IMG/VR virus record: IMGVR_UViG_2778261163_000008
Span: 1 to 20,117 of that record
DNA from: a virus
Taxonomy: Duplodnaviria; Heunggongvirae; Uroviricota; Caudoviricetes
Reading direction: 5' to 3' (one strand)
Length of the DNA stretch: 20,117 bases
Shown here: positions 1 through 20,117 of the stretch, in pieces
Numbering within the stretch: the first letter of the stretch is position 1
Layout: every line of letters starts with the position of its first letter
Program-made: the position numbers and the translations under genes
Notes under the pieces: model-generated
The model's database searches: none
What the model was told of the DNA's origin: nothing
What the model saw: only the letters and a program-made list of their open reading frames with translations

Positions 1-582
1 TTACCCTATAGGTGCTACTGGCCATTCAATATCCGGTGCAGTTGATGTATCAACACGGTTCAGCAACACCCGATACTTTTTCCAGGCTTCCAGCAACAAG
101 GTTTCTTCCTCCGTTGCGATTTCCAGATCTACAGCATCCTGAAGTGGCGCAATATGCTCACTGGCTACCTGCATCAGGCTGTTTTTTGTTTCTTCTGCCT
201 CCCGGATCCGGAACAGTTTTTCTGCTTCTGCATCTTTCACCCAGGCTGTGCCGTTCCACTTCTGAAACTCCCCTTCCGGCGATAACCAGGTAACATTTTC
301 CGGTAACGGACCGAGTTCAGAAATAAATAACGCGTCCCCTGACGCTACGTCATAAACCGTTTTACCCCGATGGTCTTCATCGAGATGCCACGATGCCTTA
401 TCACTGTTGAAAACAGCCACAAAGCCAGCAGGAATATCTGGTGGTGCAATATCGGTACTGTTTGCTGGCAGACCTGTATGAGGCGGAATATATGCGTCAC
501 CTTCACCAATAAATTCATTAGTTCCGGCCAGCAGATTATAAATTTTTATGGTCCGTGGTTGTTCACTCATTCTGAATGCCAT
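1..582 (-). CDS. tfa: Tail fiber assembly protein (lambda Tfa-like chaperone), 193 aa
   Basis: Translation [24 protein letters not shown]... is near-identical to lambda/E. coli prophage Tfa proteins as I recall them. ATG at 582-580 overlaps the stf stop (TAATG); stop codon is the first 3 bases of the window. Confidence 0.9.
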
Positions 583-3500
583 TATGCAAGCCTCACAATA
601 TAGTTAAATGCGATGTTTTTGACGGTGTTTTCCGCGTTACCAGCAGCGTTAACGGTGATGGTGTGTCCATGTGAACCAATCGCAACGGAGTGCGTATGAG
701 CACCAATACCGACAGTATGCGCGTGTGCACCTGCAGATGCTGCTGTGCCGGACAGTGAATGGCTATGATTACCATCTGTACTGGTATTCGCTAACCACCC
801 CGTAGACATACCTACTGAGCCTTGTACACCCCAGGTATTTTGACCTGAGCTTGTATAACCATATTGATAAGTATCTTTAAAAACACTGGGGTTAAATCGA
901 CGGCCATCTCTATGGCTGTGATTACCAGCTGCATTCGTGCTGCCACTTAAACTATGGGTATGCGCACCAGTGTTATTCGTGGATTTAGTGCCGTAATCAA
1001 ACGACGATGTGGTTTTCGTCCCCAAATCTGTACTGGATGCGCTGGCGCTGTGGGTATGCGATTTAATGCCGTCCTGTTCCTGAGACAATACGGCCCGACC
1101 ACTGGCAGGTTTGCCCTTAATCGTCCAGCCACGCATATCAGGGATCACGCCTGACGGATAAGCGGCTGCAAGTTTCGGGTAAGCAGATTTGTCAAAAGTC
1201 TGCCCCTGCATCAGGGCATAACCAGACGGAACGGTATCTGATGGCCACGGGATTGGTGCGCCGACTGGGTAGCTTTCTGGTGGAAGATTTTTCGAGGTAT
1301 AAACTTCTGCCCAGTCATCCTCAAAACCATAACCGTCTCTTGAAGAACGGTAGAACAGACCACCATTTCTGTAATGCGCCTTCATCTGCAAGGTCCGGCA
1401 ACTTCCGACTCCGGTATAGAAGTTAACCAGAATATAGCTGTCGCCAGAGCGGGTGACATTATAAGCGCCTGATTCGGCATTCCAGGGAACGCCACCATCC
1501 GCATCGGCATATGTATCCGTTGCCCTTCTGGCAAAAGCAGCCACATGCGCGGCGGTTAAAGTAATATCTTTGGAACCATCAAACTCAACACCAGAAACCC
1601 GTCTTGGCGTTTGCAGCTTTGTTGCTGTTAATGCATTACCGTTCAGACTTGCGGACAGTTTGGTTCCAATAACCAGTTCGCCGGTTGCGTTATCAATAGC
1701 AAACGGTCTTAATGTATTCCAGCCACCATAAACATCACCTTGATTGGTAAGCAGCAGGTAAGTTTTAGCGCCATCATTACGCCATAATGCACCATACTCT
1801 CCACCTATCATTCGAATCTGATTACCACCACGCGCTACAATTTCGTCTGTGGCAAAAAGTTTTTTGCACGACAAGTTATCGTTAACGATTAACGAATGAG
1901 ACTCATAAAAACCACGCCCACTCTTAAAATCAAGGATAACGTCCGCCGCGATACATTCAGTCGCTGGATTTGTTGCCCCAAACTTATAGGTCGTATCATT
2001 AACAACGAGATCAGCACCAGGTGCGGATATTGACAGGCCATCTTCGATAAACGCAAAAACAGGGAAAGCAGCGCCATCAACATAGAACACAGAGCGCAAA
2101 TCATCGCCCTTATTACTCATCATTATTGAGTGGATGGCTCGTTCATTGTTTTGATATTGCCAGAACATTCCATAAGCATAACGCCCCCTGTCAGTCCAGC
2201 CACCAGGCATAACAAATCCGTTAAACTCGCAGTTATTCATCGGATCGCCTGCGGTTCGCGTTGCCGTGGTGATAATGACCCTTGATGCCAGTTCGCTTAC
2301 TGAGCCAGCAGAACGCATAACAACAACAGGGTAATATTTTCCAGATGTTGCACCTGCAGGAGCGTTAACCCGCACATAACGCATACCACGCTTATCAGCA
2401 AAGTCTGTTTTACTGACCGCGTTAATGTTGTTCAGGAAGCGTCCCTTATCGGGTATATCAGCGCCGTTCTGGTCTTTCTGCAGACGTTTCTCTGCATTGT
2501 CATAGGCTGATTTTACTGCCTTTGGCGTTGCCGCCAGCGTTTCAGACGTACTGTTGGTCGCACTGCTGAGCTGTACTATCCCCTTTTTCGTCGTGCTCGC
2601 ATCCTCAAGCGCCACGGCGGATGCAATATCCTCTGCCCGTTTTGCCGCTGTCTCGGCGCGCGTTGCCGCGGATTCCGCCGTACTTTTGCTCTGTGCTGCC
2701 GCCGTCGCACTGCCAGCTGCCTCTGTCGCCTTCGTGGATGCTGTCGTGGCGCTGCCCTTCGCTGCTGACGCCTGTCTGGTCGCCTCATCTTTTGAAGCAG
2801 ACGCCGATGATGCCGATGACGCCGCCGAACTGGCGGACGATGCGGCAGCCGTTTTTGAGGATTCTGCGCTGGTTTCCGACGCTTTCGCGTTCGTCTCGGA
2901 TGTCTTCGCTGCGGAAGCAGAACTCGCTGCTGCGCTGGCCTGTTCAGTGGCTTCGCCAGCCTTCGTTGTGGCTGTTGAAGCGGATGATGCGGCGCTTTCT
3001 GCCGATTTTCCGGCGGCGGTGGCACTGGCTGAGGCCTGCCCGGCACTTGTTGACGCGGCGCTGGCAGATGATGCAGCCGCTGTTTTTGAGCCTGCCGCAG
3101 CTGAGGCGCTCTGTCCCGCAGCCGTCTCAGAAGACTTAGCGTTCGTCTCGGACGTTTTTGCCGCCTTCGCGGAATTTCCTGCCGCCGTTGCCGAGGAAGT
3201 TGCGCTACTGGCGCTCGAGGATGCGTTCGTTTCTGATGATTTCGCTGCCTCTTTTGAGGCCGCCGCATCCCGGGCTGAGGTGGCAGCTTCTGACGCTTTC
3301 GTGGTCGCGGTGGATGCAGAAGTGGCTGCTGATTGTTGTGACGCTGCGGCATTCGTTTCTGACGTTTTCGCGGCACTGGCACTGGTAGCTGCCGCGCTTT
3401 TTGAGGACTCTGCAGCAGCAGCACTTTTCGATGCTTCACTGGCCTTTGTTGATGCCGTTCCTGCGCTGGAAGACGCTGACTGAGCCGACGACGCGGCCTG

Positions 3501-3980
3501 TCCGGCTGATGTGCTGGCTGCACGTGCTGAGCCTGCAGCATCAGTCGCATGGGTTGCCGCCTCACGGGCTGATGTGCCGGCATCGCTGGCTGACTTCTTC
3601 GCGGCTGCCGTGTTCTGTGCCACCGCGGACGCGTTACGCGCCACCTCTTCCACCATCAGTTCAAAACGGCGCAGTGCCTCAGGACGGGCATCATCCTCCG
3701 TCATGGCACCGAGAAAATCATTCAGCGTACCGGGTCGGGAATCTTCATACACGGTGATGGTCCCGGCATGTGACGGCGGGAATCCCTCCACCAACAGAAT
3801 AACGCTGTACTGCCCGTACTCAACGTCCATGCTGTAACGCCCGGCTTCATCCGGATTTTCTGAGGCCAGCGTGTTCACCACCACCGTGGTGCTGTTACGT
3901 TTTGCTTTCAGCTGGATTGTGCAGTTCTGTACCGGTTTTCCTGTGCCGTCTTTCAGTACACCTGAAATCTTTACTGCCAT
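582..3980 (-). CDS. stf: Side tail fiber protein (lambda Stf / StfR-like), about 1132 aa from the ATG
   Basis: N-terminus [26 protein letters not shown]... and C-terminus ...[22 protein letters not shown] match lambda Stf by recall. The ORF-track start at 3986 is a GTG two codons upstream; the ATG at 3980-3978 gives the lambda-like MAVKIS N-terminus and has a GGGGTGA Shine-Dalgarno-like motif upstream. Confidence 0.9.
2560..3640 (-). repeat. Low-complexity Ala/Ser/Thr/Lys-rich repetitive coding region inside stf
   Basis: About 350 residues dominated by degenerate repeats such as AAKTSETNA / SASSASSA / TKASEAA. This composition also creates long spurious ORFs in other frames on both strands (2554..3483 +, 2576..3583 -, 2621..3139 +). 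Confidence 0.8.
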
Positions 3981-3991
3981 ATTCACCCCAC

Positions 3992-4017
3992 AAAAAAGCC
4001 CGCCTGAACCGGCGGGC
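3992..4017 (-). terminator. Rho-independent terminator downstream of lom
   Basis: Minus strand reads GCCCGCC-GGTTCA-GGCGGGC followed by TTTTTT (7-bp GC stem, 6-nt loop, U-run), sitting between the lom stop (4045) and the stf start (3980). Confidence 0.7.
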
Positions 4018-4044
4018 TGTCATAACACTGTGTTACCTGGCTAA

Positions 4045-4644
4045 TCAGAATTTATAACCGACACCCACGATGAAACCGTCAGTGCGCCAGTCACCACTGC
4101 CGGAGCCTTCATAAGCAATATCAATGGCCACGGATTCGGTCGGGTTAAACTGCACGCCAGCCCCCCACGCCAGAGACGTGTTGCTGTGGCGACCGTCATC
4201 ACTTCCGGTCAGCACATCGTGCGTTTTCCCCTTGTTGTCAGTTACGCGGAGATAATCCCCGAAGAAAGTCGACACACGGCTGTAAGCCACACCCGCCATC
4301 GCATACACGCTGAACCATTCATTCACGCGCACAGACGGCCCCGCCATTACGCTGAACCAGCGGTTACGCACGGAATCTTCATGCCAGCGGGTATCGCTGT
4401 AATGCGTTTTTTGCTCATCTTCAGCGTTGGCATAACTGAATGACGTAATCAGCCCCAGCGTGTCCGTAAACTCATAACGGTATTTCACGTTAATCCCGTT
4501 CAGATTATCGCTGCCGGGAGCGTTCGTACGGGCATGAAGATACCCTGCGCTCAGTGTGGCCTGCTGCTCAGACGCCCATGCAGGCGCACCGGATACGGCC
4601 AGACAGATGGCTGTGGACAAAATGGCTGCACAAACTTTACGCAT
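4045..4644 (-). CDS. lom: Lom-family outer membrane protein (Ail/Lom/PagC/Rck beta-barrel family), 199 aa with signal peptide
   Basis: N-terminal signal-peptide-like [24 protein letters not shown]; C-terminus ...[25 protein letters not shown] matches lambda Lom by recall; position between J and stf as in lambda; AGAGG Shine-Dalgarno-like motif upstream of the ATG. Confidence 0.9.
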
Positions 4645-4665
4645 AATTACCTCTCGCTTTTCTGC

Positions 4666-4692
4666 AATAAAAAAGGCGCCATTTCTGGCGCC
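4666..4692 (-). terminator. Rho-independent terminator downstream of J
   Basis: Minus strand reads GGCGCC-AGAAAT-GGCGCC followed by TTTTTTATT, immediately after the J stop (4712) and before the lom ribosome binding site. Confidence 0.65.
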
Positions 4693-4711
4693 CGTATATG
4701 GGTTATAAAAT

Positions 4712-7700
4712 TCAGCTGATACTGATGCCTGCGGTGGCTTTCTTCATCACCACAACCAGCAAATCGCTGATACTTGCTGTGGGATACCAGTCATTTACCA
4801 GCCATGCTGACACCGAAAACTCCAGCGTCATGTGACCGTGACCGGCAGGCATATCAATAACGCCACTGTAAATCAGCGTATTATCCAGCGCGGTACGGTT
4901 ATAAATTTCAGCACCGTTTTTCCGCACTATCAGACGGCATGAGGAGTAAATATCAGTATGCTCTCTCTCATGTTTAGCGCCGCTGAATGCCACCGCCGGA
5001 ATAACAATCTGCCGGTCAAACGGCTGATCGTCATAAACCCTGACGGTAATGGTCCCTGATGGCCACCGTTCCGGTGCACGGGAGTCCCGGGGGAAAGCTT
5101 TGCCCACTGTTTTAACGAGATCGCCTTCAATCTGGTTCGCGGACAGTTTTCCCAGAACCCGACAGTTCTCGTTAATCGTGACGTTGTTGAGCGTCCCGGA
5201 GTTCGCATTCACGTTACCGCTGATATCGGCATTTTTCGCCGTCAGCCGCCCATCCGGTGTCAGGGAAAATGCCGGTGGATTTCCACCACTGGTAATGGTG
5301 GGGGCCGTCAGGCGTTTCAGGAACACGTCGTTCATGAATATCTGATCACCCTGACCAACAAACATCGGTTTTGTGTTGCCATTCGCAGGATTAACCATCG
5401 CAATCCTGTCCGCCGCCAGCAGCACCTGACTCTGCATGCCGTCAGGGGTGTTCTCAATACCGGCACCAATACCCGCGATATAAAGGCGTCCGTCCTGCAT
5501 CTGCTGCAGCTTCACAGCCCACATGCTGTTCAGGTTATTATTTGTATCAACCTGAACCTTCTGTATCTGCTGAATTGCCGCACTCTGGTCTTCCAGTTTC
5601 TTATTGACGGTCTGCGTGATTTCATTGCTGACATCCGTAATGGACGTCCTGATTTCAGCCAGGTCAGGCGCAAGCTGACCGTTATCAATCTGCGTCCACA
5701 GCTCCTGAGCCAGATGGGTTTTCCCTATCTCGCCTTTGAAAAAATCCAGATAGCCGGATGCATCATCGCTCGCCCGACCGACGGCCTCCACAAATGCCGA
5801 TTTGCCTACGGTGTTCACACTGCGGATATAAAAGTAATAATCATGGCCCGGTTTGATATTGATACTGGCGGCTATCCAGTACAGCGCCGTACCAAGATAG
5901 CGGGCTGTGGTTTCAACCTGCCTGATATCCGCAATCCGCTTTTCCGAGAACCAGAACTCAAACTGTACCGTCGGATCATAAACCGCAAGATGCGGCGTGG
6001 CGGTTATCTGAAAATAGCCCGGCGTCAGCTCAATCCGCGACGGCGCTGCCGGTGCGGCGATCCGGAACAATACCGATGCCGGATCGCCCTGCTGTCCCCA
6101 TGCATTTACCGCCCGGACTGTCAGCCTGTAATTTCCCAGCGCCAGCTGCGTGAAGCGATATGTGGTTTCCGTCGTCCGGGCCGTGCTGACCAACCGCTCA
6201 CTGCCGTCGTCCGCTGCCACGGTCAGGCGAAGCATAAAGCTCACCCCCTTCACCACCTTCGGCGTGTCCCAGCGCGCCAGCACCTGGTATTCCCCGCTGT
6301 CTGCGGTGACTTCTGCGGTCAGGTGCTGAACTGCTGGCGGCGTGACACCATTCACCGTGCCGCTCTGGTCACCGTCAAAGTGCGCCCCGTTATCCACGAT
6401 GGCTTCTTTCTCCGGTACATGCTGCACGGCAGTGATGGCATACGTACCGTCATCGTTCTCACGGATACTCACACAGCGGAACAGGCGCTGACGCAGCGTC
6501 GGCAGCTTCAGCCCCCACACGCTGTACTCGGCAACGCCGTCAGGAACCCGGCTCACTTTCACCTTCACGCCGTCGGTGACGGACTGGACCTCCACGCTCA
6601 CCGGATTACCCTGCCCGTCAACCAGGCTTATCAGCGTGGTGCCGGAGGATGGCAGCGTGATTTCACGGTCGAGCGTCAGTGTCCGCGTCTGGCTGTTCAC
6701 CGCCAGCACGCGCCCGCCGATGCTGATCCCCGCATAGTCATCATCACAGATTTCAATGACATCACCTGGTACATGGCGAAGCCCTTCAGCACCCACGCTG
6801 AAGTCCACGGTCTGCGTTTCCAGCAGCTCCGTTTTAATCAGCCACAGCCCGGCGCGGTGTGCCTGCCCCCGGCTGGTACAGCCAAAGGCATCCATCTTCG
6901 TGACGTTACGACCGTAACGGGCAATGGCCTGCGTATCCTCCACAAGCTCTGTCGCCGTCTCCCAGCCGTTGTCCGGGTCAATCCAGTTCACCTCAACGGC
7001 ATTATGGCGGTCCTTCAGGGCGCTGAAGCTGTAGCGGAACGGCGCGCCATCATCCGGCATCACCACATTACTGCGGTTATAGGTCCACACCTTATCTGAT
7101 GGTCGGTCCTGCACGAACGTCAGCCTCTGCCCGTTCCATACCGGCATACAGCGCATCGCCGAGCAGAAATCACTGAGCACATCCCACGCTTTTCGCTGTG
7201 TGGTCAGGTACGCATTACAGGTGATGCGCGGCTCCGTGCCGCCAAAGCCGTCCGGCACTGACTGGTCGCAGTACTGGCCGATGACATACAGCGCCCATTT
7301 ATCCACATCTGCCGCACCAAGACGTTTCCCCATGCCGTAGCGCGGGTGGGTCAGCATATCCCACAGACACCAGGCCATGTTGTTGCTGTATGCTGGCTTA
7401 AACGTTCCGTCCCAGATACCGCTGTATTGCCGCGTCTGCGGGTTATAATTCGACGGCACCTGCAGAATACGCCCGCGCAGATGATAATTACGGCTCACCT
7501 GCTGGCTGCCGAACTGCTCCGAATCCACCTGCACGCCGACCAGTGCCGTGTTCGGGTAGCACTGTTTCACATCGATGATTTCGGTGTATGACGACCAGAG
7601 CGTTTTGTTCTGCAGCTGGTCTGTGGTGCTGTCCGGCGTCATTCTGCGCATCCGGATATTAAACGGGCGCGGCGGCAGGTTATCCACCACCACCGAGGCC

Positions 7701-8191
7701 AGATACTGCGAGGTGGTTTTGCCCTTAATGGTGATGTCTTTTTCCGTCACCCAGCCACCATTACGCTGTATCTGAACCAGCAGGCGAACTTCCGACGGAT
7801 TCCGGTCCCCCTTTGAGGTGGTTTCCACCAGTGCCTGCACGCCGAAAGTAAAACGCAGACGGTCAATGTTTGCCGACGTGATGGTCCGGGTGATCGGCGT
7901 GTCATATTTCACTTCTGTACCGAGCACCGTCTCGGAGCCGGAGGATTCAAATCCCTCCGGCGGTGTCTGCTCCTGCTCACCGGCCCGGAACACCACCGTG
8001 ACGCCGGATATATTGGTATTCCCCTCACTGTCCAGCACCGGCGTACTGTTCAGCAGCACGCTTTTTAATCCATCCACCGGACCTTCAACCGGCCCTTCGC
8101 TGATGGCATCGATCACACTCAGCAGCTGCGTGGACTTCAGGTTGTCCTTCGCTTCGCGCGGGGTATGCCCCTTACTGCTGCCTTTACCCAT
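4712..8191 (-). CDS. J: Tail tip host-specificity protein J (central tail fiber), 1159 aa
   Basis: Translation [41 protein letters not shown]... is lambda-J-like over most of its length by recall; the C-terminal roughly 150 aa is lambda-like in architecture but visibly divergent; lambda-like size and position. Confidence 0.95.
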
Positions 8192-19882: not shown

Positions 19883-20117
19883 GTTTTCTCCTCATGGACA
19901 CCACCAGTGCATAAAGCAGCAACAAACAGCCCGACAGCATCAGAGACGCTGGCAGACCTGCATACAGATAAACGCCAGCAGTGAGCAAACCGAAACCGAT
20001 CAGCCCGGTCATATCAGTAATACCGGAAAGCGCAATGTGTTTTAGTAGCGAAATGCGGCGCGGGTCGGCGAATAATTTTTGTTGGAGCTTAAGGGTGAGA
20101 AGGATTTCGGCCTGCAT
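19872..20117 (-). CDS. Chimeric ORF: ModE N-terminal 32 residues fused in frame to a 49-residue hydrophobic tail (81 aa); probably a junction artefact rather than a native gene
   Basis: First 32 residues MQAEILLTLKLQQKLFADPRRISLLKHIALSG match the N-terminus of E. coli ModE as I recall it; the rest (ITDMTGLIGFGLLTAGVYLYAGLPASLMLSGCLLLLYALVVSMRRKHAS) is unrelated and strongly hydrophobic. The stop overlaps the portal start. Confidence 0.45.
   Translation of the reverse strand: MQAEILLTLKLQQKLFADPRRISLLKHIALSGITDMTGLIGFGLLTAGVYLYAGLPASLMLSGCLLLLYALVVSMRRKHAS
20022..20117 (-). pseudogene. modE: 5' fragment (codons 1-32) of molybdate-responsive transcriptional regulator gene modE, truncated at a junction with prophage DNA
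   Basis: Recalled identity of the encoded 32 aa to the ModE N-terminus; similarity ends abruptly after ...HIALSG at about position 20021. Confidence 0.5.

Follow-up and report, generated by a model that had tools for sequence, protein, structure and literature searches.

An intact lom gene between conserved hairpins at the J-stf junction of a lambda-like Escherichia coli prophage

Introduction

The lom gene, known from phage lambda, is a textbook example of an accessory gene in lambdoid prophages, with annotations in thousands of E. coli genomes. In lambda, J is followed by a hairpin with a T-run, then by lom, a second hairpin with a T-run, and the start of stf. The product is known to reside in the outer membrane (Reeve and Shaw, 1979, cited in PMC1151598), the gene is reported as dispensable for plaque formation (PMC10695390), and Lom has repeatedly been treated as the product of a moron that is expressed in lysogens (PMC3594210, PMC7067206, PMC4651098, and PMC1151598). 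A moron (Juhala et al., 2000; Cumby et al., 2012) by definition has a promoter of its own and deviates in GC content. A comparable case is gp15 of HK97, an extra and dispensable gene in the tail operon of a lambdoid phage, which has its own terminator and is present or absent at the same junction; its product acts in superinfection exclusion (PMC3594210). HK97 gp15 is an inner-membrane protein, whereas Lom is an outer-membrane barrel.

The classical view holds that lambda Lom promotes adhesion to buccal cells (Vica Pacheco, 1997, cited in PMC7067206, PMC3594210, and PMC1151598), and this adhesin-like picture of lysogenic conversion goes back to that one lambda study. Serum resistance of lambda is described as a phenotype of bor, not of lom (PMC1151598). 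A different role emerges from work in which plasmid-expressed lambda Lom gave strong defense against lambda-vir and none against T7; its authors propose superinfection exclusion or the prevention of non-productive adsorption late in infection, and also report that Lom does not stop lambda-vir infection in a laboratory lambda lysogen (PMC12366544).

Lom shares an eight-stranded barrel, with strands protruding from the cell surface, with Ail of Yersinia, OmpX of E. coli, and Rck and PagC of Salmonella, which are chromosomal or plasmid members of the family. A role in receptor inactivation has precedents elsewhere. Cor (phi80, N15, and HK022) and Llp (T5) are small envelope proteins encoded beside tail or receptor-binding genes; they act on FhuA and inactivate the phage's own receptor, shielding progeny from infected cells and debris. 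Both are lipoproteins and are unrelated to Lom in sequence and fold.

Here, we describe the lom locus of a 20,117-nt stretch of viral DNA (IMG/VR record IMGVR_UViG_2778261163_000008), hereafter the window. A sequence-only reading of this DNA had taken lom, bracketed by terminators within the tail gene cluster, for an autonomously expressed lysogenic-conversion cassette. Our analysis confirmed the observation itself and supported its interpretation in part.

Results

A full-length lom gene lies between J and stf

The minus strand of the window carries, in order, J, a 67-nt gap, lom, a 64-nt gap, stf, and tfa, so that the earlier placement of lom between J and stf was correct. J (4712..8191, minus strand; 1,159 aa), the tail tip attachment or host specificity protein, contains seven Pfam gpJ domains, including Ig_GpJ_C at residues 1029-1159. 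Its receptor-binding domain has diverged from that of lambda, the last 199 aa being 55% identical to lambda J. The side tail fiber gene stf (582..3980, minus strand) has the Pfam domains phage_tail_N, Gp34_trimer, and Collar and a C terminus that resembles the tip of T4 gp37 (PDB 2xgf, E = 5e-85); tfa (1..582, minus strand) lies 3' of it. The start of stf is most likely the ATG at 3980 (MAVKISG..., as in lambda), not the GTG at 3986 that bounds the mechanical open reading frame. This ATG matches the annotated stf start of the closest genome, and the length given above for the lom-stf gap follows from it. The window as a whole shares 98.8% identity with a prophage adjoining zinT in the APEC strain E19025, which looks complete, with Q, a lysis cassette, a terminase, and an HK97-type head.

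The lom coding sequence (4045..4644, minus strand) starts with ATG, ends with TGA at 4045..4047, and encodes 199 aa. A Shine-Dalgarno sequence, GAGAGG (4650..4655, minus strand), lies 5 nt 5' of the start codon, and its AGAGGT core is invariant in an alignment of 20 distinct upstream gaps. Homology searches bore out the assignment to the Ail/Lom family. The Pfam profile PF06316 (Enterobacterial Ail/Lom protein) is matched over 1-199 of its 199 positions (413 bits against a cutoff of 23; E = 2e-124), and PHROG 108 ("Lom outer membrane protein") is matched at E = 2e-109. In the PDB, the product matches lambda Lom (9wso, E = 2e-49) and also OmpX and Ail (E of about 1e-19 to 1e-20). It falls far below the NCBIfam equivalog cutoffs for Rck (NF011777; 115 versus 258 bits) and OmpX (NF006917; 101 versus 176 bits). 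Identity to the Ail, OmpX, Rck, and PagC group is ~30%, and the phage-borne Lom of the window differs from these proteins in being ~25 residues longer in its protruding strands. Adhesion and complement resistance are activities of that group and are at most putative for the Lom of the window.

The signal peptide and barrel noted earlier were likewise found. Codons 1-24 (4573..4644, minus strand) specify a basic N terminus (MRK), a hydrophobic core, and an A-x-A cleavage motif; inspection of the translation and alignment to lambda Lom place the cut at AWA|SE, at residue 24, with SEQQ following, and the same inspection revealed no lipobox in the signal peptide. At the other end, GVGYKF reads by inspection as a typical outer-membrane beta-signal. 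An AlphaFold2 (AF2) model built from a 32-sequence alignment has eight strands (residues 29-36, 49-58, 63-81, 86-108, 111-135, 141-166, 172-183, and 186-197) and is of moderate confidence (mean pLDDT 66.8). Searched with Foldseek, it finds as best matches Ail (3qrc/3qra) and OmpX (1qj9) at E values of 5e-11 to 3e-10, that is, a fold similarity at about 1e-10. A single-sequence AlphaFold2 model was discarded at a pLDDT of 39.3. By analogy with the family, Lom would be exported through Sec and lose its signal peptide by cleavage after AWA (residue 24), and the barrel would be inserted into the outer membrane by the Bam machinery; the long strands and loops L1 and L2, where alleles differ, would then protrude from the cell surface.

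Lambda Lom (NP_040601; PDB 9wso) and the Lom of the window are alike in family, length class, position between J and stf, ribosome-binding-site context, and the hairpin terminator on each side, and the layout of the two loci is the same. The last ~50 lom codons, the downstream terminator, and the 5' end of stf are 78%-96% identical to lambda at the DNA level. Elsewhere, the proteins diverge: the window allele is without the 8-residue insertion in loop 1 of lambda Lom and differs through most of strands 3-6. The two share 93 identical residues over 207 aligned columns, a distance that counts against carrying over to this allele the evidence for receptor masking (see Discussion), which concerns lambda Lom.

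Lom alleles in general vary chiefly in the signal peptide, loop 1 (residues 36-50), and outer strand 3 with loop 2 (residues 72-82). The latter two variable regions are surface-exposed in the AF2 model, and this concentration in L1 and L2 is a point in favor of receptor masking.

That the gene is instead decaying and no longer functional, in a prophage that is itself defective, would fit the many damaged alleles in the databases, which include 183- and 185-aa forms without one strand and frameshifted Shigella copies (L089, L106, and L110), and the two rare residues, V113 and F128, that Lom carries here. The sequence-only reading had itself named a frameshifted or truncated allele as an outcome that would overturn it. 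However, alignment of the window allele revealed neither frameshift nor truncation: the family profile is matched along its full length, the frameshifts of the Shigella copies are absent, and so is a 14-16-residue deletion, common among database alleles, between two WFS repeats. The signal peptide, the eight predicted strands, and the C-terminal beta-signal are intact, and the neighboring tail and head genes of the window are all open. Moreover, at least seven complete E. coli chromosomes contain the 901 bases around lom with 100% identity, with the gene labeled "Ail/Lom family outer membrane beta-barrel protein," so identical DNA has been kept in several unrelated strains. On this alignment evidence, the decaying-allele reading appears largely refuted, and we regard it as extremely improbable. 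Similar DNA is present in 4,809 of 5,426 complete E. coli genomes, at a median of two places per genome, and in 223 phage records, many Stx-converting phages among them. We conclude, with near certainty, that the gene is an intact lom of a lambda-like E. coli prophage, encoding an eight-stranded outer-membrane beta-barrel of the Ail/Lom/OmpX family.

The flanking hairpins are conserved and probably under selection

Scanning and folding placed an intrinsic terminator after J (4669..4693, minus strand; GGGCGCCA-GAAA-TGGCGCCT and a T-run) and another after lom (3992..4018, minus strand; AGCCCGCC-GGTTCA-GGCGGGCT and a T-run). The positions given for them by the sequence-only reading, 4666..4692 and 3992..4017, agree with these to within 1-3 bases. 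Read on the coding strand, the stem of the upstream hairpin runs from 4693 to 4674 with eight pairs (six of them GC) and is followed by six T, the T-run extending to 4669; that of the downstream hairpin runs from 4018 to 3997 with eight pairs (seven GC), again followed by six T, to 3992. The upstream T-run ends 24 nt 5' of the lom ATG, and most of those 24 nt are the ribosome-binding site, while the downstream T-run ends 11 nt before the stf ATG. Minimum free energies of the two 61-nt gaps are -16.7 kcal/mol (J-lom) and -21.0 kcal/mol (lom-stf), and the eight-pair stem is the main element of the J-lom fold. These hairpins rank first and second among the 32 terminator-like sites of the whole 20-kb window (19.7 +/- 4.6 in shuffles).

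To see how far the hairpins extend beyond the window, we gathered ~280 lom loci, drawn from IMG/VR and one-genome-per-species contigs, and analyzed them by script; the scan of the latter used two peptide patterns and reached few species. The upstream hairpin with its T-run is present in all 266 related J-lom gaps, and the downstream hairpin with its T-run in 252 of 268 related lom-stf gaps. The upstream hairpin exists in at least 10 stem variants among related loci. Its GCGCC/GGCGC, GCACC/GGTGC, and GCGTC/GACGC stems differ by compensatory changes, and one variant has an inverted loop region. In lambda and in the loci of the 207-aa Lom class, the upstream position is occupied by a hairpin of unrelated sequence; the downstream hairpin of lambda, AGCCCGCCGGAACCGGTGGGCT, preserves the pairing of that in the window. 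Across 20 distinct gaps, 93% of the cells of the upstream stem are paired and four of the eight pairs have changed on both sides. None of 500 shuffles reached this covariation, and slid controls gave 36%-60% pairing. Because the hairpins are nearly universal and the upstream stem bears compensatory changes, we take them to be under selection, not products of chance. A permissive Rfam scan of 3700..5000 gave only two sub-threshold chance matches (ST7-AS1_2, 23 bits versus 50; Trp_leader, 22 bits versus 41), and the hairpins are therefore explained by no known RNA family.

What the hairpins are selected for is a separate matter. In lambda, polymerase modified by Q at the late promoter pR' ignores terminators, and termination within the late operon therefore seems pointless. 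One could thus suppose that the hairpins serve primarily in RNA stability or processing, protecting the 3' end of the J mRNA and stabilizing the 5' end of the lom mRNA, or that they are recombination joints for module exchange. Structure has indeed been kept despite sequence turnover, the identity profile against lambda shifts within the lom region, and the joint in a lom-less locus (below) lies exactly in the T-runs. However, both hairpins are canonical, with a GC-rich stem and six T directly after it, a form that mere stability does not need, and these observations are equally compatible with termination of unmodified polymerase. We consider a primary role outside termination improbable.

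lom is optional at the J-stf junction

Among viral contigs searched for the start of stf, lom precedes stf in about 99 of the ~108 cases with enough upstream sequence. One locus without lom, L348, shows how the junction looks when the gene is missing: the J stop is followed by an upstream-type hairpin, GGGCGCCAGAAATGGCGCC, by TTTTTTATT, and directly by TGTGGAGTGAGTATG and stf. In loci with lom, TGTGGAGTGAGTATG is the sequence normally found 3' of the T-run of the downstream terminator. L348 thus retains exactly one hairpin, with the joint inside the T-runs. It follows that lom is optional at this junction. Since L348 keeps the upstream hairpin, the simplest reading is that this hairpin is J's own terminator and lies outside the cassette. 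On the same simplest reading, lom and its downstream terminator would form an optional, moron-like unit that is present or absent after J's terminator.

The designation of lom as a moron therefore holds at its core, in two respects, but not in two others. First, lom is an extra gene between otherwise adjacent genes, as L348 illustrates. Second, it has a factor-independent terminator of its own downstream (4018..3997 and the T-run). Against this, consensus and matrix scans revealed no promoter of its own (see below), and its base composition does not deviate: GC content is 0.548 for lom, 0.567 for J, 0.530 for stf, and 0.533 for the window, and GC3 is 0.60, 0.67, and 0.47 for lom, J, and stf, respectively. 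In both of these respects, lom of the window departs from the published definition.

The bracket of two terminators, which the sequence-only reading took as the signature of autonomous expression, cannot by itself carry that meaning. The late operon has comparably strong terminator-like hairpins between other genes as well: one at 16812..16793 follows the major capsid gene, one at 15283..15267 precedes the major tail gene, and one at 13843..13828 separates the T-like gene from the tape-measure gene. For this reason, the bracket alone is weak evidence for autonomous expression and by itself no mark of a moron; moreover, its upstream half is read here as J's.

No recognizable promoter precedes lom

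A consensus scan of the coding strand from 3000 to 6000 found no sigma-70-like site. We then scanned the 750 nt upstream of lom with a position weight matrix (PWM), which covers the 3' end of J, where a promoter had been suggested. The best score, 7.5, was below the median best score of shuffles, 8.7, and nothing rose above shuffle level; weak or non-sigma-70 promoters may escape such scans. The upstream region of lambda lom likewise gave nothing above shuffle level with the consensus scan and the PWM. By eye, no sigma-E or PhoP-box-like motif is conserved between lambda and the window. A TATAAC near the J stop was considered as a -10 element and dropped because it varies among loci (TATCAC, TATACC, and CATAAC). 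The whole AT-rich stretch between the J stop and the upstream hairpin is variable among loci.

These results bear on the proposal that lom forms a lysogenic-conversion cassette, transcribed autonomously from its own promoter to its own terminator, which changes the host surface to the benefit of the host (adhesion and serum resistance) independently of the lytic program. In its favor, lysogenic expression of lom is reported for lambda (PMC1151598 and PMC7067206) and for phi24B (PMC4651098) and is described as constitutive and not coupled to the regulation of the phage (PMC4651098 and PMC1151598). If so, a real lom promoter must exist and is simply unrecognizable. The optional status of the gene and its own downstream terminator fit this proposal as well, as do the adhesion to buccal cells reported for lambda Lom and the adhesion and serum resistance that family descriptions give for Ail and Rck. 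Several observations point the other way. No promoter-like sequence was found; the stretch between the upstream T-run and the ATG is only 24 nt long, and transcripts starting inside J would be terminated by the upstream hairpin. The GC content is not distinctive. The lambda promoter is described as uncharacterized, and lom mRNA as undetectable, in one microarray study of a lysogen (PMC2147009). Lom is made from the prophage, but its expression is reported to rise dramatically late in infection (PMC12366544, citing the ribosome profiling of Liu, 2013). Finally, the serum resistance of lambda belongs to bor, and Lom stays below the Rck and OmpX equivalog cutoffs. On balance, we consider an autonomous cassette unlikely.

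In the scheme that we favor, J ends in its own intrinsic terminator, with lom and a second terminator directly after it and stf starting 11 nt past the second T-run. For expression, the scheme follows lambda biology and the lack of a recognizable promoter. Both hairpins would halt ordinary, unmodified RNA polymerase, so that abundant Lom would require read-through toward stf and tfa by polymerase that Q has modified at the late promoter. In the repressed prophage, a low and constitutive level of Lom could come from a weak, unmapped promoter or from leakage. Taken as a whole, from the identity of the gene through its export route, architecture, and Q-gated expression to its function, this explanation is in our view moderately probable, function being its least certain part.

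Discussion

What does Lom do? The sequence-only reading had linked the gene to adhesion and serum resistance. The second of these finds no support for Lom: serum resistance is documented for bor, Rck, and Ail. Adhesion to host cells as a lysogenic-conversion trait is a tentative possibility that we rate as doubtful, and it does not exclude a second role in masking a receptor.

The most plausible current alternative to the earlier model would be a late-expressed, phage-serving protein that masks the receptor. The PDB entry 9wso holds lambda Lom together with maltoporin LamB, the lambda receptor, with a LamB sequence identical to that of the gpJ-LamB entry 8xcj; from this chain list, we infer that 9wso is a Lom-LamB complex. 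Our literature search found no paper mentioning 9wso, and the defense models of PADLOC-DB v2 gave no match to Lom. Together with the plasmid experiments, the entry suggests that lambda Lom appears to mask LamB. A role like that of Cor and Llp is what the authors of those experiments propose for lambda Lom (PMC12366544), and the LamB and Lom entry suggests the same. Against masking count the continued infection of a laboratory lambda lysogen by lambda-vir (PMC12366544) and the missing match to a defense model. In our judgment, there is a little less than an even chance that Lom masks a phage receptor, an activity that would curb futile re-adsorption or superinfection by kin phage.

The role of Lom is thus under revision, from an adhesin for the host to a receptor mask for the phage. 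As a discovery, the lom gene described here matters little. If masking extends to the very common 199-aa class, however, a gene that E. coli genome surveys routinely count as a virulence factor would need re-labeling.

Comparison of Lom classes with the receptor-binding domain of J bears on what could be masked. The 199-aa class adjoins at least five classes of J C terminus that are 37%-61% identical to each other, which argues against a strict matching of Lom to the receptor of J. We add a speculative proposal, which we regard as quite unlikely in its entirety: the conserved upstream hairpin would gate Lom and make it an essentially Q-dependent late protein, and the 199-aa class would, like lambda Lom with LamB, be a receptor-masking self-exclusion factor, not a host virulence factor. 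Under this proposal, and because the class combines freely with so many receptor-binding domains, its target would be common to those phages, for example, a porin recognized by the conserved side tail fiber, and not the receptor chosen by J.

Finer patterns of association are visible in the same loci. In a sample that is biased by locus retrieval, lambda-type Lom is confined to loci with lambda-type J, and the 207-aa class is always paired with one and the same J class. Within the 199-aa class, the type of the L2 region is moderately associated with J class at an adjusted mutual information (AMI) of 0.33, in this retrieval-biased sample. For the types of the signal peptide and L1, the AMI is about 0.04, though both lie nearer to J than L2 does. 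In the same biased sample, both L2 types are found with every major J class.

Mosaicism and a J-stf Junction without lom

Compared with lambda, most of lom is about 50-60% identical at the DNA level. Identity climbs to 78-96% from about position 4150, stays there over the 3' end of lom, the terminator, and roughly 125 nt at the start of stf, and falls again near 3853, within stf. A mosaic boundary lies within lom, and the stretch of raised identity covers window 3854-4150. At the other end of the window, a second mosaic joint is suggested in the portal/terminase end (20023-20117), because all of the best whole-window matches among E. coli genomes end at 20022, and the last 95 bases diverge.

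One related locus, L348, has a J-stf junction without lom (2340-2425 of that locus). Past the stop codon of J come the hairpin GGGCGCCAGAAATGGCGCC and then TTTTTTATT, with TGTGGAGTGAGTATG and stf immediately after. A single terminator is left, and the joint falls inside the T-runs of the two terminators.

Damaged lom Alleles and Probable Contaminants

Many Lom alleles in databases, from E. coli and Shigella dysenteriae, are 183 or 185 aa long and are without 14-16 residues that sit between two direct WFS repeats (Lom residues 96-111 in our alignment of Lom alleles, A1). Because this deletion would take out one beta strand, these alleles are probably dead, and they probably originated by slippage or recombination between the WFS repeats. 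Three further loci (L089, L106, and L110), found on chromosomes of Shigella flexneri and E. coli ECMA0423, carry lom as a pseudogene with a frameshift or truncation. In the two whose J-lom gap can still be read (L089 and L110), both the upstream hairpin and the ribosome-binding site are retained.

A lambda-type lom was also found on low-coverage contigs (L093-L103 and others) from assemblies whose labels include Neobacillus, Kitasatospora, Leeuwenhoekiella, Pseudomonas, and Shewanella. Of these contigs, three measure about 48.4-48.5 kb. We consider the lambda-type lom in these assemblies to be, almost certainly, lambda DNA contamination.

Hairpins in and beyond the J-lom Gap

In 7 related loci, the upstream hairpin, which follows J, is inverted in its inner part (window 4681-4688), i.e., CAGAAATG is replaced by its reverse complement CATTTCTG, and the stem is kept. 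Elsewhere in the window, other strong terminator-like hairpins lie on the minus strand in late-operon intergenic gaps: in the gap that separates the T-like gene from the tape-measure gene (13828-13843), before the major tail gene (15267-15283), and after the major capsid gene (16793-16812).

Lom and LamB in a Structural Entry

A sequence match to the PDB showed that lambda Lom (206 aa, two chains) and maltoporin LamB are both within entry 9wso, and that the LamB sequence of this entry is that of the gpJ-LamB entry 8xcj. Since Lom and LamB share 9wso, the entry suggests that a Lom-LamB complex has been solved. A literature search found no publication describing 9wso, and the entry is not among the structures of the Foldseek copy (up to April 2026).

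Start Site and Reading Frame of stf

The mechanically called stf ORF begins at a GTG at 3986, and an ATG at 3980 (MAVKISG) lies inside it. This ATG, which gives the same MAVKISG beginning as in lambda and as annotated by RefSeq in the closest genome, is the likely start; the lom-stf gap would therefore be 64 nt, not 58. The stf of the window is one open frame of 1132 codons, whereas laboratory lambda has the frameshifted orf-401/orf-314 pair. The C terminus of the window's Stf resembles the T4 gp37 tip (2xgf; E=5e-85). Residues ~120-470 (window 2550-3750) form a low-complexity stretch that is Ala/Ser/Thr-rich, with a GC content of about 0.62. This region gives rise to two long spurious ORFs, one in another frame on the stf strand (2576..3583, minus) and one on the opposite strand (2554..3483, plus).
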